From the NCBI GenBank assembly GCA_964396065.1, contig CAYNCI010000017.1, positions 4,194 through 36,193 of the forward strand: a stretch of 32,000 nucleotides of DNA. The letters are read 5' to 3'. This stretch comes from an uncultured Mesohalobacter sp. GTDB lineage: Bacteria > Bacteroidota > Bacteroidia > Flavobacteriales > Flavobacteriaceae. A model generated the notes under the pieces. The model ran no database searches and was not told the origin of the DNA. It was given only the letters and a program-made list of their open reading frames with translations. The first letter of the stretch is position 1, and every line of letters starts with the position of its first letter. Shown here piece after piece: positions 1-30,636 of the stretch. The translations under genes and the position numbers were made by a program.

Positions 1-1308
1 TTTTGCGGTTGCCGTAAAACAAGACACCGGGATTTTTCCAATATTTTTGAGATTTTCAATTTGTTTGATGAAATCAGCAATAAAAAGGTAATCTACCCTA
101 AAATCCTGTCCCCAATTTGAAAAACAATGGGCTTCATCAATAACTATACGCCCTAAAGATCTGGATAACAACAATCTAAAAATTGAAGGTGAACGTAAAG
201 ATTCCGGTGAAAGGTATAATATATCTGCCCTTCCGTCTTCTACCATTTCAAAAGCTTCCTGACGTTCTAAAGGTGATAATAAGCCATTGATGGCAACAGC
301 TTTTGTTATGCCAAACCGATCTCTCAAATTATCTACCTGATCTTTCATTAAGGAAATTAAAGGAGAAATGACAAGCGTTAAATGTCTGGTTAAAGCACCT
401 CGCATCAAAGCCGGTAGTTGAAAGGTTAAGGACTTGCCTCCACCGGTAGGAAATACGGCAACAAATGAACTGTTTTGCAAGCCGGCTCTAACCGCCTGTT
501 CCTGTAGGCTGATTGGTCTGTTTTTGTCAAATTTTCTAAAGTCAGGATAATTGAAATATTCAAATAATGCTTTTTTGGGATTTAATTTATTTTCGCAATA
601 GTGGCAATTTTCAGCATTGCAATAATTGAAACGTATGTCGTTAAGAATTTGTTCGGCTTCCGGATACTCATGCTTAACCCAGGGTGGCAGAACGGCGTCC
701 TTATCACCTAATTTTAGCAACGTAAAGACATAAGCCAATCCAATAGGATGGTTTTCAATGTAATGTTCAAATTTTGTCTGAGAACAACATTCTTCTTGCA
801 AAATAGAATTGATATCTACCTGAGTAAATTGATCTGCATTGAAACCGGCAAGCTCAAAAAATGTATTAAAATTCGGTTGCTTTTTAAGCAATTTGAAGTA
901 AACACTTTTATCTGCCGGACTTAATGCATTAAATCGGTTGAGTTCCTTAATCAGGTAATCTTCAGTTAATTTACAATCAGAAAGTGGATTGTTGACCTCC
1001 GAAGGATTTACAATTCTATAGCCTTTTGTAAGTTTATGGTTAGGTCTTTTTACGAACAACAAAGGCGACCATAACAACGTGTCAATATATTTTTTGTCCC
1101 TGAATATTCCTTCCCCAAGTTTTGTTTTGAGTTCGGGGATATCGTGTTTAATAATATTGTGTCCACAAATATAATTTGCTTGTCTGATCCATTCTTTTAA
1201 TTTTCGGGTATGCCTTTCATGTAGCTCCTGACCATTAAAAATAGCACCATAATCTACACTTTTGTTTTTAGGATTGGTCTCGATGTCTAGAAAAAGGATG
1301 TTATGCAT
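1..1308 (-). CDS. RecQ-family SF2 DNA helicase with an N-terminal DEDD-like 3'-5' exonuclease domain. Partial: the C-terminal part lies beyond the left window edge.
   Basis: Not in the ORF track. My hand translation of the minus strand from the ATG at 1308-1306 is open for 436 codons down to nt 1. The N-terminus reads MHNILFLDIETN (ExoI DxE), ICGHNIIKHD (ExoII-like) and NNPLSDC (ExoIII-like). A Cys cluster CNAENCHYC sits at nt 621-595. The RecQ core shows FPTGGGKSLTFQLPAL (motif I, nt 453-), VIDEAHCFSNWGQDFR (motif II, DEAH at nt 138-127) and SCFTATAK at the edge. Confidence 0.8.
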   Translation of the reverse strand, partial: MHNILFLDIETNPKNKSVDYGAIFNGQELHERHTRKLKEWIRQANYICGHNIIKHDIPELKTKLGEGIFRDKKYIDTLLWSPLLFVKRPNHKLTKGYRIVNPSEVNNPLSDCKLTEDYLIKELNRFNALSPADKSVYFKLLKKQPNFNTFFELAGFNADQFTQVDINSILQEECCSQTKFEHYIENHPIGLAYVFTLLKLGDKDAVLPPWVKHEYPEAEQILNDIRFNYCNAENCHYCENKLNPKKALFEYFNYPDFRKFDKNRPISLQEQAVRAGLQNSSFVAVFPTGGGKSLTFQLPALMRGALTRHLTLVISPLISLMKDQVDNLRDRFGITKAVAINGLLSPLERQEAFEMVEDGRADILYLSPESLRSPSIFRLLLSRSLGRIVIDEAHCFSNWGQDFRVDYLFIADFIKQIENLKNIGKIPVSCFTATAK

Positions 1309-1599
1309 TGAATACCCTAAACAATTGTTAGTCTAATATAAAAAAGTTTTATAAATAATAAGGAGGATATCTTCAACTGATAATGAATTAGATGCCAATG
1401 GTCATTTTTTTTAGGCCTAATTTCATATCAAACATAATATTGACTGTTAAAATGGTAAAGCCTAATCAAATTTGAAAACTATATTAAAACTTGAAAAGAG
1501 GGAAATAAATTAGAAAAACACCATTCTAAAAGTTTATACTATGTCTTAAAAATAAACTATATAATCACTTCATTTAGACTTATACCAAATTGAATATTA

Positions 1600-2361
1600 T
1601 CAAGTCAAATTCTCATAGATTAATTTTTTTCCGCAAGATTCAATTGAGCCTCTTCCTCTTTGAAAACAATCGGAAAGCAATTCAAGATCATTAGTATACT
1701 CTAGTGCGGTCTTTAATAGTTGCTTTTCTTTTTCAGTCCAGGTCTCGTAAGCCCGAGCATACTTAACTCTTGAATTAATAATGTATTCTGATAAATTTTC
1801 TGTTTTTAATACTCCTATTTCGTTTATCCTACTCTTTAATTGTCTAATTGCTTTATCGGATAATCTATTGAACTTTTCTTTTCTAAAAAAGTCTATGTCA
1901 CGCCATGGTTCAGGCTCTTTTTCTTTTCTCTTTTTTCCTCGAACTGTTAACCCATTATTAGTTAAATAATCTCTGAAAAAACTGTTAAGTTCTTGTTTTG
2001 AGTAATATCCAAAATACTTACCGTATAATTTATCAGAGTCTAAAACTGGAATATCAAAATACTTGGATTTTAGGAAGAAGTGGGTCAAAAGGCTATAACT
2101 TGGGCTATAATCAACACTTTGAAATAATTTAATCACATAATCCACTTCTTGTAAACTAATTTTAATTTTCTGGAAATGACTGATTTTAATTGAAGAATTA
2201 CTAGAATCACTAATTTTATCAAGTTCTGAAATAGCTTTTTCTAGTGCTCTTATGACATCTCTTTCATTTAGCACGCTATCGTCTTTAATCATTTCTCCTG
2301 TTTGAGGGGAACATCCTGAAGCTAGAGCCTCCAAAATTTCCATTACTCTATCCAATTTCAT
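1600..2361 (-). CDS. Hypothetical protein, 253 aa, co-oriented upstream of the Exo-RecQ gene. It has a basic linker and a C-terminal SANT/HTH-like segment.
   Basis: Long ORF in a very AT-rich region on the same strand as the helicase, 291 nt upstream of it. Readable elements are an N-terminal ILEALASGCSPQTGEMI...VIRALEKAI helix-like segment, a KKRKEKEPEP basic linker, and a C-terminal WTEKEKQLLKTALEYTNDLELLSDCFQRGRGSIESCGKKL that resembles a Myb/SANT or sigma-r4-type HTH. I recognise no family by eye. Confidence 0.6.
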   Translation of the reverse strand: MKLDRVMEILEALASGCSPQTGEMIKDDSVLNERDVIRALEKAISELDKISDSSNSSIKISHFQKIKISLQEVDYVIKLFQSVDYSPSYSLLTHFFLKSKYFDIPVLDSDKLYGKYFGYYSKQELNSFFRDYLTNNGLTVRGKKRKEKEPEPWRDIDFFRKEKFNRLSDKAIRQLKSRINEIGVLKTENLSEYIINSRVKYARAYETWTEKEKQLLKTALEYTNDLELLSDCFQRGRGSIESCGKKLIYENLT

Positions 2362-2664: not shown

Positions 2665-3126
2665 ATGAGAAGTAAAAAAAGACTTTTAATTGAACAACTG
2701 GACAATAAGCTACAACCATTTTCTGAAAGCAGAAAGGTCCTAGTACCGCAACGTGGGTGGATAAATGCTATTCGAAGCTCACTTAATATGACTATGGCCC
2801 AACTTGGGAGTAAACTTAATATAACAAGACAAGGGGTGAAAAAAATTGAGGAAAGTGAAGCCAGTGGTACTATAACACTTAATTCTTTAAAAAATGTTGC
2901 TAATGCAATGGATCTAAAATTGGTTTATGCAATGGTTCCAAAAAATGGTACTATCAGCGACTTAATACATCTAAAAGCAGAAAAATTAGCAAAAAAAATT
3001 GTGTTAAGGACCAATCAAAATATGAAATTGGAAGACCAAGGTGTTGGGGATGAAAAGATTACCAAAATCATAAAGGAACTTACTTATGACATAGAACGGG
3101 AAATGAGAAAGTCTTTATGGGATTAG
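2665..3126 (+). CDS. Mobile mystery protein A (XRE-type helix-turn-helix, antitoxin-like partner of the Fic protein)
   Basis: 153 aa. The segment RGWINAIRSSLNMTMAQLGSKLNITRQGVKKIEESEASGTITLNSLKNVANAMDLKLVYAMVP is the HTH/XRE pattern typical of the TIGR02612-type family. Its stop overlaps the start of the downstream Fic gene (ATGGGATTAG). Confidence 0.75.
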   Translation: MRSKKRLLIEQLDNKLQPFSESRKVLVPQRGWINAIRSSLNMTMAQLGSKLNITRQGVKKIEESEASGTITLNSLKNVANAMDLKLVYAMVPKNGTISDLIHLKAEKLAKKIVLRTNQNMKLEDQGVGDEKITKIIKELTYDIEREMRKSLWD

Positions 3127-3713
3127 AATTTGATTATAAATATGGTCAAACACCTTTAGCTAAAGAGGAAAAAGAAGGGCTAAAAATAAAATCAATAACT
3201 ACCCATGGAGAACTTAATGAATTTGAGCAATTAAATATTGAGAAGGCCGTCGAATGGAGTATAAATACTAATTTTAAATCTGAAAATATCTTGACCGAAA
3301 AGTTCATTAAAAACATACACAAACGAATGTATGGCGATGTATGGAAATGGGCAGGTGATTTTAGGAAAACCGAAAAAAATATTGGAGTTCCGTGGATACA
3401 GATTAGCATGGAGTTAAAAAAACTTCTTGACGATACAGAGTATTGGATTGAAAATAAAATCTATTCACCTGAGGAAATTTCTATTAGATTTAAACACCGT
3501 CTGGTATCTATTCATTGTTTTCCTAATGGAAATGGAAGACATTCAAGAATGATGGCGGACATAATTATTGAGTCTATATTTGGAAAGAAAATATTTTCTT
3601 GGCATCAATCTAATATAGTCAAAGCCAACGCCATTAGGAAGGCATATATCAACGCCTTGAGAAAAGCTGATAATGGCAACATAGAGCCACTAATTGATTT
3701 TGCAAAGAATTAA
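3117..3713 (+). CDS. Mobile mystery protein B (Fic/DOC family protein)
   Basis: 198 aa. The Fic motif reads HCFPNGNGRHSR, a variant of the HxFx(D/E)GNGRxxR core with N at the acidic position. It overlaps the upstream HTH gene by 10 nt, which is a classic two-gene Fic module. Confidence 0.85.
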   Translation: MGLEFDYKYGQTPLAKEEKEGLKIKSITTHGELNEFEQLNIEKAVEWSINTNFKSENILTEKFIKNIHKRMYGDVWKWAGDFRKTEKNIGVPWIQISMELKKLLDDTEYWIENKIYSPEEISIRFKHRLVSIHCFPNGNGRHSRMMADIIIESIFGKKIFSWHQSNIVKANAIRKAYINALRKADNGNIEPLIDFAKN

Positions 3714-4015: not shown

Positions 4016-4021
4016 CTCTTG

Positions 4022-4094
<73 letters not shown>

Positions 4095-10838: not shown

Positions 10839-11132
10839 TGTTGGAATCTCTCTCTAAGGCGTAAGGGCGCTAAGATTCTAATGGTATAAGGATTTCACTC
10901 AAAGGACATGGAAAGCCTGAATGCTTCATAATGACTTAATGTGTTAATCTCTCTTGAAGATGAAAGGCTTGTAAAACTATGTGAAGAAGGGTTTCACACA
11001 AAAGACACACATAGCCTTAATGTATCTTAATGACTTAATGTTTAAAATCTCTCGTGAAGACGCTAAGGCTTAAATGGTTTAAGAGTTTCAAGCTTAGGGC
11101 GCAAAGTCTTAATGACTCTTAATGCCTTAATG
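10824..11132 (+). repeat. Degenerate tandem array, about 3.3 copies with periods of 93, 99 and 92 bp. Each unit is headed by 2-3 CTTAATG heptamers.
   Basis: Unit starts are at 10824, 10917, 11016 and 11108. Each unit has the layout [CTTAATG]x2-3 + aatctctc + gaaga(t/c)g + aaggc + tttca(c/a). The first two heptamers form the last codons and the stop of engB. Confidence 0.8.
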
Positions 11133-11239
11133 TTGTATCAAATTAATAAATTTTACCACTAATATAGACTACATTTCTGTTATTTTTGAACCATTAAGCA
11201 AACTACTCAGTGAAAATTACAAAAAATAAATAGATAAAT

Positions 11240-11267
11240 CTTGGCGCCTTCGCGCCTTTGCGTGAGA
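11240..11267 (+). repeat. Triplet of CTTNGCG heptamers (cttggcg, cttcgcg and ctttgcg at 8-nt spacing) immediately upstream of recX
   Basis: Read directly from cttggcgccttcgcgcctttgcgtgaga. It has the same orientation and spacing logic as the CTTAATG triplets, and GC-rich relatives (gggcgctaag / cttagggcgcaaag) occur inside the array units. Confidence 0.6.
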
Positions 11268-11273
11268 CTAGTC

Positions 11274-11753
11274 ATGAAACCCACAAAGACATATACCGTT
11301 CAGGAAGCCTTACAAAAACTGGCAAAATATTGCGTGTATCAAGACCGTTGTCATAAAGAAGTGGAACAAAAATTACGAGATATGAATATGATTCCTCAAG
11401 CCAGACAGGAAATCATTGCTCATCTCATTCAACATGATTTTTTGAACGAAAAACGATTTGCGCTAAATTATGCTAGAGGTAAATTTAATCAGAAGCATTG
11501 GGGAAGAATAAGAATAAGACAAGAATTAAAAAAAAGAAACATTACTGAAAGGCTCATCAATCTGGCTATAGGTCAAATTTCGGAAGACGAATACCTTGAT
11601 AAACTACATGCCATAGCGACTAAAAAATATAAACAGCTGGGCTGTGATAATAGCATAGCTTCAAAAAATAAACTGAAAACTTTTCTGTTTTACAGAGGTT
11701 TTGAATCTCATCTTGTCTTCGATGAATTGAATAATTTAACTTCCACGCCCTAG
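11274..11753 (+). CDS. recX: Regulatory protein RecX
   Basis: It shows the helical-repeat pattern ALxKLxKYCxYQDRCxxEVxxKL...LxxxxFLNExRFAxxYARGKF..KxWGRxRIxQELKKRxI. I chose the start at the ATG at 11274, because the track's TTG extension is made of repeat sequence. Confidence 0.85.
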   Translation: MKPTKTYTVQEALQKLAKYCVYQDRCHKEVEQKLRDMNMIPQARQEIIAHLIQHDFLNEKRFALNYARGKFNQKHWGRIRIRQELKKRNITERLINLAIGQISEDEYLDKLHAIATKKYKQLGCDNSIASKNKLKTFLFYRGFESHLVFDELNNLTSTP

Positions 11754-11807
11754 ATTTCTACAAATATTAATTATTTTAGTAATTAGTAAACTAAAAAACC
11801 ACTTGTT

Positions 11808-12146
11808 ATGAACGAAAATGTACAGCCAAAACCAAATAACCACATGGTTATGGCAATAATTTCAACCGTTTTATCTGTAATTACTTGCACCTTTGTTTAT
11901 CTGATTCCTATTGCCGCTGGTATTGTGAGTATAGTTTACGCCAGCCAAGTAAATTCTAAATACGATAGAGGCGACCAAGAAGGCGCAGAGAGCTCTGCTA
12001 AGATTGCTAAAATTTCTTGGATAGTAGCTATAGTAACTATTGTGCTTATCTACATTGGATCATTCTTAATCTTCGGCGCATCTCTAGATGAAATGATGGA
12101 AATCTTTGAAGCCGAAATGGAAAAACAAAGAGCTTTACAGGAATAG
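11808..12146 (+). CDS. CD225/dispanin family membrane protein
   Basis: 112 aa with two TM segments flanking IVSIVYASQVNSKYDRGDQEGAESSAKIAK, which is the CD225 signature region. Confidence 0.75.
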   Translation: MNENVQPKPNNHMVMAIISTVLSVITCTFVYLIPIAAGIVSIVYASQVNSKYDRGDQEGAESSAKIAKISWIVAIVTIVLIYIGSFLIFGASLDEMMEIFEAEMEKQRALQE

Positions 12147-12185
12147 TTCGTAAGACTATTACGTATAAGTTCGACACCTCTTAAT

Positions 12186-12599
12186 ATGAACATTTCAAAA
12201 CCTATCAGGTATACTCTTATTATTGTTGGTATTCTGATAGGTTTACTGTTTTTCTGGTTTTACCATACCCTAAACCCAAGTGAACATTCCGTTTATCCCG
12301 AATGTCAGTTTTATGCTTCAACGGGTTATCTGTGTCCGGGATGTGGCAGCCAAAGAGCTGTACACGATATCTTACATTTCAATATAACTGAAGCGTTTAA
12401 GCACAATGCACTGGTAGGTCTTTCAATTTTAGCTTTGGTCTATCTTGTTTTTGTGCTTGCTTTCAACAAAATTTCATCCAAAAAAATACCAAATTATTTT
12501 AACCGTGCATCTACAGCATATGCCATTTTAGGCATCATACTAATCTTCTGGATTTTAAGGAATTTACCTTTCGAGGTGTTTAATATTTTAAGGCCTTAA
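12186..12599 (+). CDS. DUF2752-type membrane protein
   Basis: 137 aa. A CPGCGSQRA motif follows the first TM helix, and further TM helices come after it. This family commonly sits next to CD225 genes. Confidence 0.7.
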   Translation: MNISKPIRYTLIIVGILIGLLFFWFYHTLNPSEHSVYPECQFYASTGYLCPGCGSQRAVHDILHFNITEAFKHNALVGLSILALVYLVFVLAFNKISSKKIPNYFNRASTAYAILGIILIFWILRNLPFEVFNILRP

Positions 12600-12645
12600 T
12601 AAAAAGTAAGCCTCATTATTTTTTAACTTTGTTAAAAAATTAGAT

Positions 12646-14097
12646 ATGCTTAAAAATATAGAACCTCAAATCGTCTGGAAACATTTTAGTGATTTAAATG
12701 CTGTGCCAAGACCTTCTAAAAAAGAAGAGCGAGTTATTCAATTCATGATGGATTTTGGAAACAGCTTAGGTTTAGAAACTTTAAAAGATAAAGCGGGGAA
12801 TGTTATCATCAAAAAACCAGCATCCAAAGGCTTTGAAAACCGAAAAACGGTAGTATTGCAGTCGCATTTGGACATGGTTCATCAAAAAAATGAAGACACA
12901 GTATTCGATTTTGAAACACAAGGTATAGAAATGTATGTGGAAAAGGATTGGGTAAAAGCTAAAGGCACGACCCTAGGTGCAGATAACGGTTTAGGCGTAG
13001 CGACCATAATGAGCATTTTGTCTTCAGATGATATTGAGCATCCGCCTTTAGAAGCCTTATTTACCATAGATGAAGAAACGGGCATGACGGGCGCTAAAGA
13101 ACTGGATCCAAATATTTTAGAAGGAGATATTTTACTTAACTTAGATACTGAAGAGGACGACGAAATTGGAATTGGTTGCGCAGGTGGGATAGACGTCACC
13201 GCTACTCGTTTTTATATTGAAGAGTCTATTCCGGAAGAGGCATCGGCATTTAATATCACCATAAAAGGTCTGCAAGGCGGGCATTCCGGCATGGATATCA
13301 TCAAAGGACTAGGTAACGCAAACAAAATTCAAAACAGAATACTTTATAATTTACACAAAACCTTTCAGTTAAAGCTTTCCAGCATTAATGGTGGCGGTTT
13401 AAGAAATGCTATCCCTAGAGAAAGCCAATCAACCATTGTCGTTTTAAACAAAGAAATAAAAGACTTAAAAGAACAATTTAACAATGTAAAAGAGAATATC
13501 TTAACGGAGTTTAAATCTCTAGAACCAAATTTAAGCATCGAACTTAGCGAAACTAATCTTCCAAAATCTGTTGTAAGCAGCGATGTACAAGATATGCTCA
13601 TAAAAGCAATACAGACAGCACATAATGGTGTATATCGTATGAGTCCTGATGTAGAAGGGCTGGTAGAAACATCTAATAACATCGCAAGAGTTGAAGTTGG
13701 TGAGGGCAAAATCCAAATATTATGCCTGACAAGATCTTCTGTCGAATCTAGTAAATGGGACTTGGCCTATAGCCTAGAAAGCGCTTTCGATTTGGCAGGT
13801 TGTAATGTAAAATTTTCTGGAGATTATCCCGGCTGGGCGCCAAACCCGGATTCTGAAATTTTAAATATTCTAGATAGGCTTTATCAGGAAAAATTTAAAG
13901 AACAACCCAACATTGCAGCTTGCCACGCAGGATTGGAATGTGGTATTTTAGGCAGTCATTACCCCAAAATGGACATGGTATCTTTTGGCCCAACCATTAA
14001 AGGAGCACATTCTCCGGACGAACGTGCCAGCATCTCTTCAACTCAAAAATTTTGGTCGTATCTACTGGATATTTTGAAAAATATTCCTGAGAAATAA
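12646..14097 (+). CDS. pepD: Aminoacyl-histidine (Xaa-His) dipeptidase, M20 family
   Basis: 483 aa. It aligns by eye with E. coli PepD at VWKHFSDLNAVPRPSKKEE, VVLQSHLDMV, GTTLGADNG, DEETGMTGA and GCAGG. Confidence 0.9.
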   Translation: MLKNIEPQIVWKHFSDLNAVPRPSKKEERVIQFMMDFGNSLGLETLKDKAGNVIIKKPASKGFENRKTVVLQSHLDMVHQKNEDTVFDFETQGIEMYVEKDWVKAKGTTLGADNGLGVATIMSILSSDDIEHPPLEALFTIDEETGMTGAKELDPNILEGDILLNLDTEEDDEIGIGCAGGIDVTATRFYIEESIPEEASAFNITIKGLQGGHSGMDIIKGLGNANKIQNRILYNLHKTFQLKLSSINGGGLRNAIPRESQSTIVVLNKEIKDLKEQFNNVKENILTEFKSLEPNLSIELSETNLPKSVVSSDVQDMLIKAIQTAHNGVYRMSPDVEGLVETSNNIARVEVGEGKIQILCLTRSSVESSKWDLAYSLESAFDLAGCNVKFSGDYPGWAPNPDSEILNILDRLYQEKFKEQPNIAACHAGLECGILGSHYPKMDMVSFGPTIKGAHSPDERASISSTQKFWSYLLDILKNIPEK

Positions 14098-14126
14098 AGT
14101 ATTAGTGATATTTATCTAAGTGAGAA

Positions 14127-14531
14127 ATGACTAAAAAGCAAGTCACCCAACTATCTTATGATGTAACTGGTTATGCAATAAAAGTTCATAAAGCATTGGG
14201 GCCCGGATTGCTTGAGAGTGTTTATGAAAAATGTTTAAAACATGAGCTTATTTTAAATGGATATCATGTAAGACAGCAGGTATCTGTCCCGTTAAAATAT
14301 AATGGGATCGCAATAGAAACTGATTTGAAGTTAGATCTTTTGGTAAACGATATAATAGTTGTTGAACTAAAAACTGTTGAATGTTTACTTCCGGTACATG
14401 AAGCACAATTATTAACTTATATGAAATTGCTAGAAAAACCTCAGGGTTTACTTATTAATTTCTATACTGATAACATCACAAAATCACTAAAACCCATGGT
14501 AAACGAGTTTTTTAGAGATTTACCTGATTAA
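14127..14531 (+). CDS. GxxExxY family protein (PD-(D/E)XK-like)
   Basis: 134 aa with the signature GPGLLESVYEKCL and the downstream DLLVNDIIVVELK motif. Confidence 0.85.
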   Translation: MTKKQVTQLSYDVTGYAIKVHKALGPGLLESVYEKCLKHELILNGYHVRQQVSVPLKYNGIAIETDLKLDLLVNDIIVVELKTVECLLPVHEAQLLTYMKLLEKPQGLLINFYTDNITKSLKPMVNEFFRDLPD

Positions 14532-14595
14532 AACTAATTATTAAAGGTGTCTTTGAAAACAATTTGTATGTGGCAAAACTTTATGCCTAAATGCT

Positions 14596-14718
14596 AAAAA
14601 TTAAAAAACATTAAGAAGTTAAGATGCATTAAGAAAAATAGATGAATATGAGAACATTAAAGCAATAACACTTAATGTAACTTAATGCCTTAATGTTAAA
14701 AATTAAAAAAATTAAGAT
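14596..14718. repeat. Palindromically arranged cluster of CATTAAG / CTTAATG heptamers bracketed by direct AAAAATTAAAAAA + TTAAGAT words
   Basis: CATTAAG occurs at 14609 and 14627, with a CATTAAAG variant at 14655. CTTAATG occurs at 14671, 14681 and 14689. AAAAATTAAAAAA occurs at 14596 and 14698, and TTAAGAT at 14619 and 14712. A 17-nt exact match (cttaatgccttaatgtt) links 14681-14697 to 11118-11134. Confidence 0.75.
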
Positions 14719-14741
14719 GTTAAAACGATAAAAATCAAATT

Positions 14742-15506
14742 ATGAATATCATTTCGTACAATGTAAACGGCATTCGTGCTGCTATGCGAAAAGGCTTAAC
14801 CCTTTGGCTAAAAAATACCAATGCAGACATTGTCTGTTTTCAAGAAATAAAAGCTCTGGAAGAACAAATCGAGACACAAGCCTTTGAAGAATTAGGCTAC
14901 ACCTATCAATATTGGTATCCGGCTGAAAAAAAAGGCTATAGCGGTGTAGGCATTATTTCGAAAGTAAAACCTAATCATGTCGAGTTTGGTTGTGGCATAG
15001 ACTATATGGATAAAGAAGGGCGGATTTTAAGAGCGGATTTTGATCATTTTTCAGTTTTAAGTTTGTATTTGCCATCAGGGACAAACGATGCCAGACTTCA
15101 ATTAAAGTTTGATTTTATGGATGATTTTTACGACTACATTTCATCCTTAAAAAAAGAAATTCCGCGTTTAAGTATTTGTGGCGATTTCAACATTTGTCAT
15201 GAGCCAATGGATATTCACGACCCTGTTAGATTAAAAACAGTGTCTGGATTTTTGCCGGAAGAAAGAGAGTGGCTGAGTAAATTTTTAAATAATGGTTTTA
15301 TTGATTCCTTCAGGTATCTAAATCCTGAAAGAGTAGAGTACTCCTGGTGGAGCTATCGGGCCAATGCAAGAGCCAATAATAAAGGATGGCGACTGGATTA
15401 CCATCTAGTTGACCAAAATTTAAAACAAAATATTGAAAGAGCCGTTATATTACCTGAGGCAAAACATAGCGACCATTGCCCTGTTTTATTAAAGTTGAAA
15501 TTTTAA
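14742..15506 (+). CDS. xth: Exodeoxyribonuclease III
   Basis: 254 aa of the EEP fold, with SYNVNGIRA, CFQE, GDFN and a C-terminal SDHCPV. Confidence 0.93.
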   Translation: MNIISYNVNGIRAAMRKGLTLWLKNTNADIVCFQEIKALEEQIETQAFEELGYTYQYWYPAEKKGYSGVGIISKVKPNHVEFGCGIDYMDKEGRILRADFDHFSVLSLYLPSGTNDARLQLKFDFMDDFYDYISSLKKEIPRLSICGDFNICHEPMDIHDPVRLKTVSGFLPEEREWLSKFLNNGFIDSFRYLNPERVEYSWWSYRANARANNKGWRLDYHLVDQNLKQNIERAVILPEAKHSDHCPVLLKLKF

Positions 15507-16475
15507 ATGATGAAAAATAATTTAAAACTTGTAGCGGTAAGCCTGAGCATCGTGGCTGTTACATTTTCATGTGTACCTAAAAAAGACTTTTTGAATTTGG
15601 AAACCCGATACGAAAATCTGGAGTCTCAAAACAGGCTGCTTACCAAAAAACTTAAAGACAGCGAAGCTAGCAACGACCTACTAACGACCAAATTAAACGA
15701 AAGACAATCACTCTTAGATAGCCTCCAAAATACTTTGGATAGCTTAACTATTGAGTACAACAGCAAGACACATCAACTTCAGAATTTAGAAGAATCTTAC
15801 AAAGCGCTGGAAGAAAACAGCAGTCAGTTGCTGTCCGAAAATTCTAAACGTAACAGAGAATTATTATCTGAGCTTGAGGAGAAGGAAAAAGCACTGGCTC
15901 AGGAACGACTAAGACTGGAAAACCTTCAAAAAGATTTGCAGGAGCGCTCATCAAGAATTGAGCAGTTAGAAAGTCTGATTGCATCTAAAGAAGCAAAACT
16001 TTCTGCCCTTAAAGACAAATTAAGTGATGCCCTAATTGATTTTGAAGGCAGAGGACTGAGTGTAGAGCAACGTAATGGCAAAGTCTATGTTTCCATGGAA
16101 AACAAGTTACTTTTTGCGTCTGGAAGCTGGAATGTAGGCTCCGAAGGAAAAAAGGCCATCAAGGAACTTGCTAATATCCTTGCTCAAAATGGAGACATTT
16201 CGGTTTTAATCGAAGGACACACCGATAATGTGCCTTACAGTGGCAAAGGCCCATTAAAAGACAACTGGGACTTATCCACAAAGAGAGCCACAGAAGTGCT
16301 AAAGCTCATTCTCGAAAACCCTGCCGTAGATCCTAAAAACCTTACGGCTGCAGGTAGAGGCGAATATATCCCTGTAGATACCAACGAAACAACAGAAGGT
16401 AAAGCCCGAAACAGAAGAATAGAGGTGGTCTTGGAACCAAGACTTGACGAGATAAACAAACTCATAAATGAATAG
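15507..16475 (+). CDS. OmpA-family lipoprotein with a long coiled-coil
   Basis: 322 aa. It has a lipobox (VTFSC), about 150 aa of heptad-rich LxxLxxL sequence, and a C-terminal OmpA_C domain (GHTDNVP...STKRA...NRRIEV). Its ATG directly abuts the xth stop (TAAATG). Confidence 0.85.
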   Translation: MMKNNLKLVAVSLSIVAVTFSCVPKKDFLNLETRYENLESQNRLLTKKLKDSEASNDLLTTKLNERQSLLDSLQNTLDSLTIEYNSKTHQLQNLEESYKALEENSSQLLSENSKRNRELLSELEEKEKALAQERLRLENLQKDLQERSSRIEQLESLIASKEAKLSALKDKLSDALIDFEGRGLSVEQRNGKVYVSMENKLLFASGSWNVGSEGKKAIKELANILAQNGDISVLIEGHTDNVPYSGKGPLKDNWDLSTKRATEVLKLILENPAVDPKNLTAAGRGEYIPVDTNETTEGKARNRRIEVVLEPRLDEINKLINE

Positions 16476-16478
16476 GCT

Positions 16479-18995
16479 CTAAAAAGTTACTCTAAACAAC
16501 AGATTTGGCGTAAATCCCAACCCGTTTTGATTAAAGGTTTGAATGTTTTGTTGAGCATTTAGCCAGTAGAAACGGTTGTAAATGTTAGAATTGCCCAATA
16601 CATTTAAAAATGAAATCCCGGCGAGTGCATTTATATTTTTAGACAGCTTAAAATTGTAAGTTGAAGAAAAATCTAAACGTAAATAATCGTCCAGTCGACC
16701 GGAGTTAGGTAACTCATACGCAATGGTTTGTGGCAATAAATTTTGATTTTCTGAAGGATTTGTAGTTGTGGCGCCGGAGTGCCAATTAAGGCCGGTTGAA
16801 ATTTTTAAATTATGTTTTTCGTAGCTAAACCCCGTCGAAATAACATGAGTAATATCCAGATTGTTTGGAAATGATGATGGGATAAGATTTTCAAAACTAT
16901 AGTTGTTTTCAGAAAAACTATAGCTTAACCATCCTGAAAAGAATCTAAAATTTTTATTTATCAAAAAGTCAAAACCTAGGATGTCATAATAGCCGTGATC
17001 TTCTGCAAGCTCAAACTGGTTTTGAAAACCCTGACTTTGTGTGGTTATGCCATCCACTTTTTTGTAATACATATCAAAATTAATAAACCAGCTAGGTTTA
17101 ATAAAGTTGAGCCCAAAAGACACCTGTTCGCTTTGGATAATTGGTCTGGTATCCGGTGCAGAAAGCACCCAACGTCGATTTTCTACACCTAAAAAGTCGG
17201 TTTGAAGATCTATAGTTTGGGAGGTTACCTGGCTTTTTTGTTCTGCCAATACTTCTACAAATAAGTCCCTTACAATTTGATAGTTTAACCTTAATCGGGG
17301 TTCGAATAAAACCTCTTCAAATTTCGAATACAGGTTTAATCGGCTACCAAGACTAAGATTGAGTAGTTTATTTTCTGAGCTATATTTAAAATCAGCATAA
17401 ACACTGTTGGTAAGCAAAGCGTTTTGCGTTTCATCAAAAAAGGCGGGATCGTTGATGCTTTGGGAGTTTAAAATTCCCGTTTCGTTAAATTGGTAACCCG
17501 TTTCCAGAGCCATAAAAGAAGTAAGTTGTGTTTCCAGGTTTAGTTTTAACCCATACTCGTTCACTCTATTTCTCTGTTCCAGGCGTTGCAGATTAAGAAG
17601 ATTGGTATTTACGGCGTTTAAGCTATAACTGGAAATATAATATTGCAGTTGCGACTTGGTTGATGGCGACCATGCCCTCTCGTACAATAAGCCTGCAGCA
17701 ATATTAAACTGCTCCAAATCGCTTGTCCTTGTGTTTATTGGAGATTGCTCTTGGTCAAACCGATTCAATTCAAATTGATCTTCTGCATAATAAAGGTTTG
17801 CTTTTATATAATCTTGCTCCGTCAGCTGATGTTTGTAATTCAATGCGGCATCAAAAAAAGAAAAATCGTTTTCTTGTTGTGTTGTTGGGGTTTCCAGGTT
17901 AGTCACTTCTGTATTTTGAAATACTTTATCAAAATATTGATTGTAGGTTGGGCTTTCCCAAATAGAATTGATAGACTGTCTTGTCGAAAATTCAACTGAA
18001 GAGGCTTCGTTTAAAGGCGCTTCTATCAAGGCGTCGATGTTGATTAAATTTAACCCAACACTCGCTTGTAAGCTATCTGCAATTGCATTGCTGGTCCTCA
18101 TGTCGATAAGACTAGATACGCCATCGCCATATTTTGAAGAAGTTCCGTTTTTTACAAGGCTAACGTTTTGAGTCATATACGGGTTAAAAGCCGAAATCAT
18201 ACCAAAAAAATGTGAGGTATTATACATTTTTATGCCATCCCAAAGAAATAAGTTTTGATCATGTGTGCCGCCTCTTACATTTAAATAAGAGACGCGTTCG
18301 CCTCGACTTACAATGCCGGGAAGTGCCTGCAAACTCTGAAGCACATCCGGCTCTATTAAGCCAGGAAGTATTCCGAAATCCTCATAATTAATTTCTAAAC
18401 CACCAGAAGCAATTTTTTGAATACCATTGGTTAATAAAGACGTAAGAACAACTTCGTCTAAAGTTTGGTAAAAGGGATTTATAAAAATTGAAGGACAGTC
18501 TTCGCCTTTAGTTTCCTGCAGCACAAACACTTTTGTAATATAGTCTTCTTTAAATATTTTTAGCTCCTTGCCTAAAGCAGCTTTGGGAAGAAAAAAAATA
18601 CCGTTTTCATCTGAAGTGTAGGTGAAATCTGCATGAATTAGTCTGGAACTCGAAACAGGTTCTTTGGTCATATTGTCAAAAACACTTACGCATACGTTTT
18701 CTTTAGAAGCCTTAGGAATGAGTAAAATGCTACGTTTGCCCTGAAAAACATACGTAAAAGGAGTTTGCTGTTGTAAGTAGTTAAGCTGTTGTTGAAGTGT
18801 CTCCAGATCGTCTTGAAAATCTGCAGTTATCCCCTCAATATTATCGTTGGCATAGGAAAATATGACATCGTACTTTTTTTGCAAAGCATCCAGATATGTC
18901 GCAAGATCTAACGCGCCTTTTTTGGATTGAGCAGTTAAAATCCCTGCAAATCCAATAAAAAACATTACGAAGAAATATAGTTTTAAAAGTCTCAC
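16479..18995 (-). CDS. TonB-dependent receptor, FecA-type transducer with an N-terminal STN signalling domain
   Basis: 838 aa. After a signal peptide comes an STN-like segment (LxxYLDALQKKYDVIFSY), then a carboxypeptidase-regulatory-like segment, a plug, and a barrel ending in ...LLFRVTF. The GTG start overlaps the FecR stop (TAGTG). Confidence 0.85.
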   Translation of the reverse strand: MRLLKLYFFVMFFIGFAGILTAQSKKGALDLATYLDALQKKYDVIFSYANDNIEGITADFQDDLETLQQQLNYLQQQTPFTYVFQGKRSILLIPKASKENVCVSVFDNMTKEPVSSSRLIHADFTYTSDENGIFFLPKAALGKELKIFKEDYITKVFVLQETKGEDCPSIFINPFYQTLDEVVLTSLLTNGIQKIASGGLEINYEDFGILPGLIEPDVLQSLQALPGIVSRGERVSYLNVRGGTHDQNLFLWDGIKMYNTSHFFGMISAFNPYMTQNVSLVKNGTSSKYGDGVSSLIDMRTSNAIADSLQASVGLNLINIDALIEAPLNEASSVEFSTRQSINSIWESPTYNQYFDKVFQNTEVTNLETPTTQQENDFSFFDAALNYKHQLTEQDYIKANLYYAEDQFELNRFDQEQSPINTRTSDLEQFNIAAGLLYERAWSPSTKSQLQYYISSYSLNAVNTNLLNLQRLEQRNRVNEYGLKLNLETQLTSFMALETGYQFNETGILNSQSINDPAFFDETQNALLTNSVYADFKYSSENKLLNLSLGSRLNLYSKFEEVLFEPRLRLNYQIVRDLFVEVLAEQKSQVTSQTIDLQTDFLGVENRRWVLSAPDTRPIIQSEQVSFGLNFIKPSWFINFDMYYKKVDGITTQSQGFQNQFELAEDHGYYDILGFDFLINKNFRFFSGWLSYSFSENNYSFENLIPSSFPNNLDITHVISTGFSYEKHNLKISTGLNWHSGATTTNPSENQNLLPQTIAYELPNSGRLDDYLRLDFSSTYNFKLSKNINALAGISFLNVLGNSNIYNRFYWLNAQQNIQTFNQNGLGFTPNLLFRVTF

Positions 18996-19882
18996 TAATC
19001 GCCTAAGATGATAGTCTTACCATCAATTTTGTAGGTAAGGCCTAAGGGCAAAGTAATAGAATTTAATGCTAATTTTATATTAACATGGCCAAAACTTCCT
19101 GTAAATCTTTTGGACGTATCGATTGTTGAAGTATCAAATTCGAAGTCGTAATAATTTTTAAGTTCTTTTATCACCACATCTAGCGGCTGATTTTTTAAAA
19201 TAGTCATGTTTTTTTGCCACGTGGGCGCATCAAGCGTGTTTTGCCTTAGACTCACTTTACCATCAAAAAAACTGAGAAAATCATTTTGTTTAAGGATATA
19301 AGTTTCGTTGTTAACCTCAACCTGAACAGAACCTTCAAAACAAGACACTTCAAATAGATATTCACGAGATTTTACATTAAAGACCGTTCCTAAAACTTGT
19401 ACATTACCTTGAGGTGTAGATACTGAGAACTTTTTGCCTTTTTCAACATTAAAAAGAGCTTCCCCTTGTAAATCAAGTTGTCTGTTATGCGCCCAGTCGG
19501 CTGAATTGTATGTTAATATTGAATTTGAATTTAGATTTACGACAGAATTATCAGGTAAATTTATGCTTTCAGTTAGTGCAATATCTGTTTGAATTGAAGT
19601 CAATTCAGAATTGAAATAAATATTTTTAAAAAGGAAAAAACCAAGAATTAAAACTGCTGCGATAGATGCAATATACCTTAAAACTGGTGTTTTATTGGGT
19701 TGAATTTTAGCTTCTATATCCTGTAAAGAACTTTCAATATTAAACTCAGGGGCTTTAAAAGCCTTAGCATTTTCAGAAATTTTGACGTAAGAAGCATACT
19801 CGTCTAATGCCTTAAACGCTTGCATTTCGTCTGCGGTTAGCTCATCTGCGAGCCACTTTTTTATTAATTCTTCTTTACGCAT
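18995..19882 (-). CDS. FecR family anti-sigma factor / transmembrane sensor
   Basis: 295 aa with an N-terminal cytoplasmic helix, a single TM segment (IASIAAVLILGFFLF), and a periplasmic FecR domain (V.LNSNS.L.Y.......R...L.GEALF.V). Confidence 0.85.
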   Translation of the reverse strand: MRKEELIKKWLADELTADEMQAFKALDEYASYVKISENAKAFKAPEFNIESSLQDIEAKIQPNKTPVLRYIASIAAVLILGFFLFKNIYFNSELTSIQTDIALTESINLPDNSVVNLNSNSILTYNSADWAHNRQLDLQGEALFNVEKGKKFSVSTPQGNVQVLGTVFNVKSREYLFEVSCFEGSVQVEVNNETYILKQNDFLSFFDGKVSLRQNTLDAPTWQKNMTILKNQPLDVVIKELKNYYDFEFDTSTIDTSKRFTGSFGHVNIKLALNSITLPLGLTYKIDGKTIILGD

Positions 19883-21298: not shown

Positions 21299-23095
21299 AT
21301 GAAATTACTATCAAAAATCATGTTTTTGGCAATCTTAGTTATTGCTTCGGCATCGTGCGACGACGATGATGATCCACAAATTATTACCCCAGGCACTTCT
21401 TCTTTGTTTGAAGTTATAGCAAATAGCCCTGACCATACCGTTTTAGAACAAGCCTTAATAGATACAGACCTTGTAGATGTATTAAATTCAGATACATTTA
21501 CTGTATTTGCACCAACCGATGCAGCTTTTGCAAACGTTGATTTGACTGGACTATCTACAGACGAAATTAGAAATATATTATTAAATCATGTTGTGTCAGG
21601 AAATGTAAGATCAACAGATTTATCTAATGGTTACTTTAAATCAAATGCCGTAGAAACCTATTCTGGAAATGATAACAATATTGACTTATACATCAATATT
21701 GATAGTGGTGTGGTTGTGAATGGTGTTTCTACGGTTTCTGTTGCAGACATCAATGCATCAAACGGAACAATACACAGTGTAGATGCTGTTATTCCATTAC
21801 CAAATGTGGTAACTCTAGCAGCTGCAGACCCTAATTTTGCAACTCTAGCAGCCGCTTTAACTCAAGAAGATCTATTAGGTACTTTATCTTCTTCTGCCGC
21901 ACCTGCACCATTTACAGTATTCGCTCCAACAAACGATGCTTTTGGCGCCCTATTAGGTGAAGACAACAACATTAACACTGCAGAAGAATTGTTAGCATTA
22001 CCAACATTAACAGAAATCTTAACTTACCATGTATTAAGTGGTGCAGTAAGAGCTGGCGACATTACAGACGGTATTTCTCCTACAACTGTTCAAGGGTCTA
22101 CTTTTACAATCAATACTGCCGGTGGTGTAACTATTACAGATGGCTTTGGAAGAGTAGTTAATATTGTAGCTACAGACGTAACAACTGCAAATGGTGTAAT
22201 ACACGTATTAGACAATGTTATTTTACCAGAAGGCGCAGTACCAACAACTTTCGAGATTATCGCAAATAGCCCGGACCATACTGCTTTAGAACAAGCACTA
22301 ATTGCAACAGGTTTAGACGACGTACTTAACCAAGGTACTTTTACCGTGTTTGCCCCAACCGACACAGCATTTGCCGGTGTAGATGTTTCTTCTTTAACAC
22401 CTGAACAAGTAACTAACATTTTATTAAATCATGTTGTTACGGGCTCAGTACGTTCAACAGATTTATCTAACGGGTATGTTAAAACAAATGCCACAGAAAC
22501 TTATTCTGGTAACGGAAACAATATCGATATGTACATTAATATAGATAATGGTGTAGTATTAAACGGTGGCGCAAGCGTAACAGCTGCAAACTTACTAGCC
22601 TTAAATGGTGTTGTACATGTTGTAAACGAAGTCATTACTATTCCTAATATTGTAACTTTAGCTGCTTCAAACCCAGATTTTAGCAACTTAGCAGCTGCAC
22701 TTACTCAACAAGATTTATTAGGTGTGCTTTCTACAGATGCAGACACTGCCCCTGCTCCATTTACTGTATTTGCACCAAGCAATGACTCTTTCCAGGCATT
22801 CTTAGATGCAGATCCTAACGATGGGTTCTCTACTATAGACGATGTATTAAACTTACCAATACTTACAGATGTTCTTACATACCATGTTTTAAGTGGTGCA
22901 GTAAGAGCCGGAGATATTACAGACGGCATCTCTCCTGCAACAGTACAAGGCGAGACCATTACAATAAATACTCCAGACGGTGTAACAATTACAGATTCTA
23001 ACGGAAGAGTAGTCAACATTATAGCTACAGACTTTACAGGTTCTAATGGCGTGATACACGTTATAGACAATGTAATTTTACCAACGCTTCCATAA
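21299..23095 (+). CDS. Fasciclin (FAS1) domain lipoprotein with four FAS1 domains
   Basis: 598 aa with lipobox ASASC. FAS1 H1/H2 motifs recur (TVFAPTDxAF, NGVIHVxDxVxxP). Confidence 0.9.
   Translation: MKLLSKIMFLAILVIASASCDDDDDPQIITPGTSSLFEVIANSPDHTVLEQALIDTDLVDVLNSDTFTVFAPTDAAFANVDLTGLSTDEIRNILLNHVVSGNVRSTDLSNGYFKSNAVETYSGNDNNIDLYINIDSGVVVNGVSTVSVADINASNGTIHSVDAVIPLPNVVTLAAADPNFATLAAALTQEDLLGTLSSSAAPAPFTVFAPTNDAFGALLGEDNNINTAEELLALPTLTEILTYHVLSGAVRAGDITDGISPTTVQGSTFTINTAGGVTITDGFGRVVNIVATDVTTANGVIHVLDNVILPEGAVPTTFEIIANSPDHTALEQALIATGLDDVLNQGTFTVFAPTDTAFAGVDVSSLTPEQVTNILLNHVVTGSVRSTDLSNGYVKTNATETYSGNGNNIDMYINIDNGVVLNGGASVTAANLLALNGVVHVVNEVITIPNIVTLAASNPDFSNLAAALTQQDLLGVLSTDADTAPAPFTVFAPSNDSFQAFLDADPNDGFSTIDDVLNLPILTDVLTYHVLSGAVRAGDITDGISPATVQGETITINTPDGVTITDSNGRVVNIIATDFTGSNGVIHVIDNVILPTLP
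21407..23092 (+). repeat. In-frame tandem duplication of an 843-bp (281-aa, 2xFAS1) unit inside the fasciclin gene
   Basis: Copy 1 is 21407-22249 and copy 2 is 22250-23092. Conserved blocks at equivalent offsets include IANSPDHT.LEQALI, TFTVFAPTD.AFA, ILLNHVV.G.VRSTDLSNGY and LTYHVLSGAVRAGDITDGISP.TVQG. Confidence 0.85.
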
Positions 23096-30483: not shown

Positions 30484-30636
30484 GACACGTATTTTACTTA
30501 ACAAAATTTAATTTCAACACCTTTGTCTGAATAAAAAAAGTAATGAAAATAAATCTTCAACAAAAATAACTATCCAAAATATTAATATTAGTAATAACTA
30601 TTATTTATAAATGACTAATCGATGAAAATATGATTT

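Follow-up and report, generated by a model that had tools for sequence, protein, structure and literature searches.

A single-chain protein with RecQ- and UvrD-type helicase motors and an exonuclease-like domain, encoded by an accessory gene of an uncultured Mesohalobacter sp.

The first 1308 nucleotides of a 32,000-nucleotide stretch of DNA from an uncultured Mesohalobacter sp. (Flavobacteriaceae; assembly GCA_964396065.1, contig CAYNCI010000017.1, positions 4,194 to 36,193 of the forward strand; hereafter the window) hold the beginning of a helicase gene that leaves the window at its left edge. The locus raises two questions: (i) what protein the complete gene encodes; and (ii) whether that protein serves the cell's own DNA metabolism or acts upon foreign DNA. 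A reading made from the sequence alone had proposed a WRN-like fusion of an exonuclease and a RecQ helicase, plausibly the effector of an uncharacterised anti-mobile-element or defence system. Helicase-nuclease fusions are central to DNA repair, as in WRN, DinG and AddAB/RecBCD, and to many anti-phage systems. We show here that the gene encodes a protein of 1599 amino acids (aa) with two helicase motors, and on balance we lean towards the view that this accessory gene, which stands alone, provides a one-chain helicase with two motors and a 3′-5′ exonuclease-type domain, and that the enzyme acts in genome conflict.

One gene, two helicase motors

Translation of the minus strand from the ATG at 1308 gives 436 sense codons with zero stops, in agreement with the sequence-only reading, and an open frame of this length would arise by chance with a probability of ~1e-14 at 35% guanine-plus-cytosine (GC) content. 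The ATG is the first one downstream of an in-frame stop nine codons upstream, and homologues share the same start. The frame had been noticed by hand, being missing from the program-made list of open reading frames (ORFs), which omits any frame that reaches an edge of the window. All of the motifs named at that time are present at their positions when rechecked (Table 1).

The remainder of the gene was found through its neighbour. An exact-match look-up of the adjacent 253-aa ORF led to a 68-kb metagenome contig (L093 in our numbering of loci) that shares 12.4 kb with the window at 99.85% identity and carries the intact gene at 11054-15853, followed by CHAP, YegS and CoaX genes. The encoded protein matches the part in the window at 435 of 436 residues. 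The L093 gene is the same population's complete copy, and the window holds its first 27%. In the neighbour tables of the closest homologues, Helicase_C and UvrD pieces likewise come next on the same strand, and the L093 gene carries precomputed UvrD-helicase and UvrD_C domains in the region outside the window. The earlier description as an exonuclease-RecQ fusion therefore fell short, because the actual gene also encodes a winged helix and a complete UvrD-like helicase of superfamily 1 (SF1).

Table 1. Features of the helicase gene, its product and the adjoining part of the window
Feature	Residues	Window position	Strand	Basis or remark
1599-aa helicase gene, first 436 codons	1-436	1..1308	-	remaining 1163 codons past left window edge
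DEDD/DnaQ-like (PolB-exonuclease-like) RNase H-fold domain	1-130	919..1308	-	AF2, Foldseek
ExoI, FLDIET	6-11	1276-1293	-	
ExoII, GHNIIKHD	49-56	1141-1164	-	
ExoIII, NNPLSD	106-111	976-993	-	
All-alpha four-Cys domain	131-245	574..918	-	AF2; no Foldseek match
Cys cluster, CNAENCHYC	230-238	595-621	-	
RecQ core (DEAD, Helicase_C)	246-620			Pfam, recQ_fam
RecQ motif 0 and N-terminal RecA lobe of the SF2 core	246-436	1..573	-	
Walker A, PTGGGKS (K292)	287-293	430-450	-	
DEAHC	391-395	124-138	-	
WGQDFR	399-404	97-114	-	in aromatic-rich loop CFSNWGQDFR (aa 395-404)
Motif III, TATA	432-435	4-15	-	
Region with MarR/Fur/ArsR-type winged helix	~620-1030			profile matches, best E 6e-4
UvrD/PcrA-like SF1A helicase	~1030-1470			Pfam UvrD-helicase, UvrD_C
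Tail, ~130 aa	~1470-1599			no match, profile vs PDB
AT-rich intergenic region, 291 bp, presumed promoter region		1309..1599	-	sequence
253-aa ORF, upstream of helicase gene		1600..2361	-	no Pfam, PADLOC or PDB match
HTH_3 (2665-3126) and Fic (3117-3713), 10-nt overlap, divergent from helicase gene		2665..3713	+	Pfam 4e-5, 3.5e-11
tRNA-Met (CAT), core/variable-islet boundary		4021..4094	-	ARAGORN; Rfam 67.3 bits

The first motor belongs to the RecQ family of superfamily 2 (SF2), as had been claimed. The window fragment matches Pfam DEAD at 4e-23, RecQ structures in the PDB match the core at 1e-51, and the full-length L093 protein passes the cut-off of the recQ_fam model (TIGR00614) with 256.2 bits against 219.8, a relative at L005 reaching 256.6; the 436-aa fragment scores only 120.9 bits because it is truncated. 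RecQ motif 0 (L248..F252..R258..Q) is conserved family-wide together with the Walker A motif, DEAHC and the aromatic-rich loop, and across 66 sequences K292, DEAHC and QESGRAGR are kept in this motor. In the same sequences the UvrD motor keeps GPGSGKT (1055-1061), DEFQD and GDDDQNIYGFRG, and further SF1A motifs are recognizable in the UvrD part (NYRS, TMHKAKGKE and YVASSRAK). The Pfam models UvrD-helicase and UvrD_C score 120.4 and 51.1 bits in the L005 relative (cut-offs 23 and 25.6), and the members at L010, from Cellulophaga fucicola, and at L044 behave likewise. Both motors retain all of their motifs for ATPase activity and translocation, and helicase activity is predicted for each.

Could the gene nevertheless be a housekeeping recQ with a lineage-specific extension? 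Its RefSeq name, RecQ family ATP-dependent DNA helicase, and the recQ_fam score would suggest so. With canonical bacterial RecQ it has the helicase core in common, with motifs 0 and VI, Walker A, DEAH and the aromatic-rich loop. However, the protein fails the recQ equivalog model (TIGR01389; 304.6 vs 640.2 bits) and PRK11057 (224.9 vs 1015), in agreement with the earlier statement that exonuclease-helicase fusion is not the standard architecture of a bacterial housekeeping RecQ. The recQ model aligns from query residue 246 (model position 3), so that ~243 residues precede the RecQ core, close to the ~235 first estimated; in all, there are ~245 extra N-terminal and ~980 extra C-terminal residues relative to canonical RecQ, and the Cys cluster precedes the core. 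DEAD and Helicase_C were the modules found in the core, whereas Pfam gave no match to RecQ_Zn_bind (PF16124), RQC (PF09382) or HRDC (PF00570) in three full-length members. The PDB RecQ alignments break off near chain residue 350, at the expected beginning of the Zn domain, and there is no conserved Cys after the core, a generic MarR-like winged helix being present instead. In other genomes, RecQ paralogues of 680-1096 aa lie within 3.5 kb of the gene at four loci (L069 7797-9905, L078 7953-9995, L027 18235-20493 and L060 15264-18554), and two of these four have RQC, HRDC and RecQ_Zn_bind; a canonical RecQ thus coexists beside the gene. Given also the presence of a whole UvrD helicase and the lack of synteny described below, we reject this explanation as very improbable.

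An exonuclease-like domain and a four-cysteine module

The N-terminal 130 residues had been interpreted as an exonuclease domain, and here fold and sequence have to be considered separately. Conservation was scored in two alignments, of 69 and of 25 sequences, which cover diverse relatives with 30-50% identity. Residues D8, E10, G49-H50-N51, D56, D76-T77-L78, H91, K95, N107-P108 and D111 are invariant, and N106 is conserved in at least 90% of the sequences. The acidic set of a DEDD exonuclease is therefore complete, with D8 and E10 in ExoI, D56 in ExoII and D111 in ExoIII, all of them invariant.

A model of aa 1-262 built with AlphaFold2 (AF2) from the family alignment has a predicted local distance difference test (pLDDT) score of 91.1 and a predicted template-modelling (pTM) score of 0.87, and its first half follows the order b1b2b3-aA-b4-aB-b5-aC, which is the topology of RNase H-like/DnaQ exonucleases. 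When the model is compared with the PDB by Foldseek, Staphylococcus aureus DinG (SaDinG) comes first (8zef_A and 9ii8_A; prob 1.0), followed by E. coli Pol II, an archaeal family-B polymerase, the Exuperantia EXO-like domain, oligoribonuclease and the QIP exonuclease. Among the viral models of BFVD, four matches fall below 1e-3; they comprise phage DNA polymerases, proteins with an RNase H-like domain and one protein of the YprB type. In the SaDinG structure, beta1 ends with a D/E pair and beta4 with a His that contacts phosphate, an Asp opens the next helix, and H-x4-D opens the last helix (PMC12345164). D8/E10, H50, D56 and D111 fall on the same secondary-structure elements as these catalytic residues.

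Sequence comparison is less favourable. Searches of aa 1-262 against Pfam, NCBIfam, PADLOC and the PDB with phmmer or hmmsearch gave nothing significant, and in a permissive scan of the 25 members one by one, no Pfam exonuclease family rose above threshold: DNA_pol_B_exo1 was the sole recurrent family (6 of 25 members, best E 0.025), while DNA_pol_A_exo1 (PF01612) had no match even at E 10; RNase_T, DNA_pol_B_exo2 and RNase_H_2 gave no significant match either. Support from sequence is consistent, if weak, and lies below threshold. With hhalign, comparisons with single E. coli sequences (Pol II and epsilon) gave probabilities below 3%, and the short alignments place GHNIIKHD on the ExoII motif of Pol II (GWNVVQFD) and FLDIET on the ExoI motif of epsilon (VLDTET). 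The Foldseek probabilities for the PDB matches are 0.87-1.0, those of the top matches, which are DEDD exonuclease domains, being 0.95-1.0; the best E-value is 1.5e-3 and none falls below 1e-3.

The fifth residue of the DEDD site is a further difficulty. The sequence-only reading had pointed out an Asn at the position of the DEDDh His, and this observation extends to the family: no aligned member has a His or Tyr at D-5 (N106) or D-4 (N107), and Ser replaces N106 in a few. Since the general base is replaced by Asn or Ser, the domain could be slow, could make use of H91 or H50, or could be inactive. It is possible, for example, that the domain is a pseudo-exonuclease, in which fold and metal ligands are kept for binding DNA 3′ ends or for regulating RecQ, and that the protein is purely a dual helicase or translocase. 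The Asn (or Ser) substitution, the sub-threshold Pfam scores, and the position of the least confident part of the AF2 model (residues 90-110 beside ExoIII, pLDDT 53-72) would all agree with such a scenario. On the other hand, dead nuclease domains seldom keep catalytic carboxylates, and here the four carboxylates and H50 are invariant across relatives of 30-50% identity; moreover, the invariant H91 and K95 in the adjacent loop could supply a general base, and the counterpart of H50 is the phosphate-contacting His of SaDinG (PMC12345164). We consider a pseudo-exonuclease unlikely, if a serious contender. As far as sequence and model can tell, the metal-ligand set and the fold of a DEDD exonuclease are kept and the general base is not, and catalysis is a prediction only.

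Between the exonuclease-like domain and the RecQ core lies a domain that, when folded alone, is all-alpha (AF2 pLDDT 92.5). The CxxxxCxxC cluster reported at aa 230-238 is real and conserved in the family, and it has an additional member: in the same 69 and 25 relatives C175, C235 and C238 are invariant and C230 is at least 90% conserved, C175 being the fourth conserved Cys. The four residues probably form a Zn or Fe-S (iron-sulphur) site. Foldseek found no fold match for this domain in the PDB (best E 0.9, prob 0.08), and there was no sequence match in the PDB or Pfam.

An accessory gene in variable surroundings

The family to which the gene belongs is large. A profile of the N-terminal domain finds it in at least 592 species genomes, and phmmer with aa 1-262 (E <=1e-3) gives 850 clusters at 50% identity. 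Complete members have 1580-1890 aa, with the domain located at the N-terminus or at most ~150 residues from it; the domain can therefore serve as a hallmark of this architecture. Over 100 proteins, whose sources are Bacteroidota, Clostridia, Aminicenantes and Deltaproteobacteria, align over 100% of the 436-aa query with ~45% identity. The full N-terminal architecture is carried by 30 plasmids of Bacteroidales, Campylobacterota, Alpha- and Gammaproteobacteria, whose copies (1599-1700 aa) bear only the RefSeq label quoted above, and the domain was found in no phage.

The best 120 database matches are all of 749 aa or fewer, in spite of a family size of ~1600 aa. In six contexts that were inspected (L001, L002, L003, L085, L086 and L087; draft Ion Torrent or long-read assemblies) the gene is split by frameshifts and called as two to four fragments of 486-727 aa plus UvrD pieces. 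The short best matches reflect a bias of listing and assembly rather than biology, because at ~66 of 80 fetched species loci the gene is one ORF of 1560-1670 aa. An artefact of assembly and gene calling appears to hide the true architecture in protein databases.

In the window, the order of genes is alanyl-tRNA synthetase (AlaRS), M23 peptidase, MerR, tRNA-Met, a stretch with a helix-turn-helix (HTH)-Fic pair and the 253-aa ORF, and the helicase gene, beyond which L093 continues as described. In the three nearest relatives, whose AlaRS is 80%, 73% and 70% identical, the RecX...AlaRS-M23-MerR block is preserved and synteny breaks directly after MerR; what follows there is a sulfatase, a GntP permease or else the his operon, and the helicase gene is absent. 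The gene is thus not a syntenic housekeeping gene. The best match of the helicase is to Nonlabens at 78%, whereas AlaRS is at most 62% identical to that of any named genus, and lateral transfer is therefore indicated. The AT-rich accessory context that had been noted is correct as far as the accessory and non-syntenic character is concerned; AT-richness is limited to the Fic/HTH/253-aa stretch (29% GC), and the helicase gene itself has a genome-like 35-37% GC. A tRNA lies within ~1.2 kb of the gene in 5 of 60 loci. A scan for sigma-70 promoters and terminators, using a model ill-suited to Bacteroidota, found sites no commoner than in shuffled sequence.

No gene family flanks the helicase gene in more than ~6 of 65 loci, and there is no conserved partner gene; the 138 nearest neighbours span 186 Pfam families. 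The earlier view of the protein as a system's effector needs correction in this respect: it is not the effector of a multi-gene system, since no flanking family recurs above that level. Fic proteins are the commonest neighbours (5 of 60 loci), in subfamilies that differ from the Fic of the window. The Fic module next to the gene was correctly described, and the HTH-Fic pair has a toxin-antitoxin-like arrangement and matches PADLOC PDC-S04 at 2.5e-20 and SoFic at 1.8e-11; as a recurring module it was rejected, there being zero homologues near the giant gene at other loci. Two giant ORFs upstream of the gene elsewhere (L012 807-6674, 1955 aa; L032 2597-8641, 2014 aa) were also rejected as partners, being mutually non-homologous and coincidental. 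The product of the ORF at L012 resembles a cell-surface protein, and a ColH-like collagenase repeat was its sole PDB match.

In Pontibacter sp. H259, a 42%-identical, co-linear, full-length homologue of the 253-aa ORF (L033 14889-15647) lies immediately downstream of the giant gene, and the last 63 aa of the window's ORF are similar to the extension at the extreme C-terminus of a canonical RecQ paralogue, which neighbours the giant gene in another genome (L078 9792-9977; pairwise E 2e-7). No homologue was found at the other ~64 loci. From these similarities, the ORF may be a candidate RecQ-associated accessory protein.

We conclude that the gene is stand-alone, accessory and laterally mobile. 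What such a gene does is less certain, and its surroundings differ from genome to genome. Some loci are dense defence islands, containing type I restriction-modification, reverse transcriptase (RT), AbiC and McrBC, or PglZ, SNF2, AbiE and HEPN; GmrSD neighbours the gene in 2 of 60 loci. Several other copies sit among housekeeping genes with plain flanks. It is therefore necessary to consider an accessory enzyme of DNA repair or replication rescue, whose task would be lesion removal or the processing of stalled or reversed forks, and not action against foreign DNA. RecQ, UvrD and DEDD exonucleases all belong to the classic repertoire of repair; many copies stand amid housekeeping genes with defence genes not nearby; RecQ paralogues are adjacent at the four loci given above and nfo is near the B. 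finegoldii copy; and the GC content of the gene is native. In addition, the best fold match is SaDinG, which its authors regard as a naturally fused MrfA-MrfB pair (PMC12345164). Against such a function speak the gene's absence from this site in the nearest relatives, homologues that are far closer than host phylogeny predicts, plasmid copies in distant phyla and the dense defence-island contexts, and we judge it rather unlikely.

Another scenario is that the protein helps mobile elements, as a factor borne by plasmids or integrative and conjugative elements that aids the establishment or maintenance of incoming DNA or counters restriction. The 30 plasmid records are in keeping with this idea, as is an Aliarcobacter copy located in a plasmid backbone beside ParA/ParB/Rep and a type IV secretion system coupling protein, and topoisomerase and primase genes flank the gene in two loci. 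However, most copies are chromosomal and without adjacent integrase, relaxase or conjugation genes, and the absence of the domain from phages also speaks against a helper function, which we regard as improbable.

Some features of the region touch none of these questions. One ORF of 465 aa (29107-30504, minus strand) matches nothing in Pfam at E <=1e-5; it lies among ordinary chromosomal genes of the window, which include an M36 fungalysin with a type IX secretion tail (24981-27587), a four-repeat fasciclin protein (21299-23095) and a FecR/TonB-receptor pair (16479-19882). In one host relative, a HepT-MNT toxin-antitoxin pair is located between metallophosphatase and PPK2 genes (L100 13251-13884 and L101 4884-5517); it is absent from the window.

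Known helicase-nuclease systems and a possible role

The giant protein resembles several known enzymes in part and none as a whole. With SaDinG it shares an N-terminal RNase H-fold exonuclease-type domain fused directly to an SF2 helicase, and S. aureus and B. subtilis DinG are examples of Firmicute DinG with an N-terminal DEDDh exonuclease (PMC12345164, PMC12525004). However, DinG has an XPD/DinG-type 5′-3′ motor and ~900 aa, compared with a RecQ-type motor and 1599 aa here; SaDinG has the canonical catalytic His where the giant protein has Asn; and DinG is without a four-Cys helical domain at that position and without a second, UvrD motor. The comparison with WRN is similar. The order of a DEDD-superfamily exonuclease followed by a RecQ motor is the same, and the cores align at E 1e-35, which is the part of the original WRN-like description that stands. 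The WRN exonuclease, in contrast, is of the RNase D/DNA_pol_A_exo1 DEDDy type, whereas the weak affinity of the giant protein is to the PolB exonuclease type; in full-length WRN (9hzg_E) the alignment is limited to the helicase core, residues 565-883; and WRN has RQC and HRDC and no UvrD module, the reverse of the situation here. By these sequence comparisons the resemblance is one of convergent architecture, not orthology, and WRN is an analogy only.

MrfA/MrfB (YprA/YprB), a helicase and exonuclease pair of mitomycin repair (PMC11194089, PMC7797055), also combines an SF2 3′-5′ helicase with a DEDD exonuclease, and a YprB-type protein was among the viral fold matches; it differs in consisting of two proteins, in the DUF1998 helicase of MrfA, in the canonical DEDDh site of MrfB and in having no UvrD module. 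The C-terminal third of the giant protein has all of the motifs of the SF1A helicases, to which UvrD, PcrA and Rep belong together with defence-linked relatives such as GajB of Gabija, but is fused behind a RecQ motor, fails all equivalog cut-offs and has neither a GajA-like nor any other system partner. RecBCD, AddAB and AdnAB are similar in joining two helicase-type modules to a nuclease, with a Cys cluster near the nuclease end; AddB, for example, carries an Fe-S staple. These enzymes, however, are multi-subunit, with both motors of SF1 and with PD-(D/E)xK nucleases, as opposed to a single chain with SF2 and SF1 motors and a DEDD domain, and apart from the UvrD-like core, no relation in either sequence or fold came to light. 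The giant protein therefore belongs with known proteins only at the level of the RecQ family and of the UvrD-like domain, and it lacks the defining features of SaDinG, WRN, MrfAB and AddAB/RecBCD. Among defence systems, it gave no full-length match to Dpd/DpdF, PsyrTA/PsyrT, Gabija/GajB, the DRT-associated helicase or Hachiman/HamB and is not a member of any of them, and no dpd, PsyrA, GajA or HamA partner was present at the examined loci.

Our preferred proposal, an accessory single-chain enzyme of genome conflict, can be pictured as follows. The protein would load at junctions of single- and double-stranded DNA, such as 3′ tails, forks, and gapped or rolling-circle intermediates. The two 3′-5′ motors would unwind the DNA, with the winged helix as a duplex-binding or strand-separating element, and the N-terminal domain would trim the exposed 3′ ends, while the four-Cys module would bind Zn or an Fe-S cluster. 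The enzyme would thus be a one-polypeptide analogue of WRN, Firmicute DinG, MrfAB or AddAB, and its gene a single-gene cassette, spread horizontally, whose product would process or destroy invading plasmid or phage DNA. We know of no worked-out precedent for a single chain that combines two motors whose nominal polarity is the same, and for this reason the mechanism is speculative.

A number of observations weigh against this proposal. In addition to that missing precedent, they are the absence of a general base in the exonuclease-like domain, its sub-threshold Pfam and hhalign scores and the modest Foldseek E-values; the native GC content of the gene; the copies with plain, housekeeping flanks; the fact that neither an integrase nor att-type direct repeats were found at the flanks of the islet; and the results of PADLOC. 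PADLOC recognized the HTH-Fic pair, and it matched the giant protein only on generic helicase cores, including those of the GajB and RT-associated helicase models. A defence role for the giant protein is plausible from some of its contexts, and the assignment to genome conflict, taken by itself, is tentative and falls a little short of an even chance. A more specific version is that of a hitherto unrecognized single-gene immunity or anti-plasmid module, widespread in Bacteroidota and Clostridia, in which unwinding of invading DNA by RecQ and UvrD would feed a 'DEDD-N' exonuclease, so called for the Asn that replaces its catalytic His/Tyr, with the possibly Fe-S-bearing four-Cys domain as a gate; this we consider possible and somewhat doubtful.

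Finally, we note what the architecture implies. In the literature on RecQ-UvrD fusions, tandem helicases and bacterial WRN-like proteins we found no description of this architecture or of its N-terminal module; the combination, in one chain, of RecQ (SF2) and UvrD (SF1) motors with a DEDD domain that is divergent and a four-Cys domain that is unclassified thus appears to be undescribed. A large family (at least 592 species genomes and 850 clusters) has been overlooked under a label that says merely RecQ family helicase. For annotation, this means that genes of the family are not to be taken for housekeeping recQ, and that error-prone assemblies often split them into two to four fragments. If active, the protein would provide a compact model for the cooperation of two motors of the same polarity, and would test whether a DEDD site can function without a His or Tyr as general base. 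If the gene serves in defence or against plasmids, it would be a single-gene system common among the Bacteroidota of gut and marine habitats, whose defence repertoires are poorly charted.

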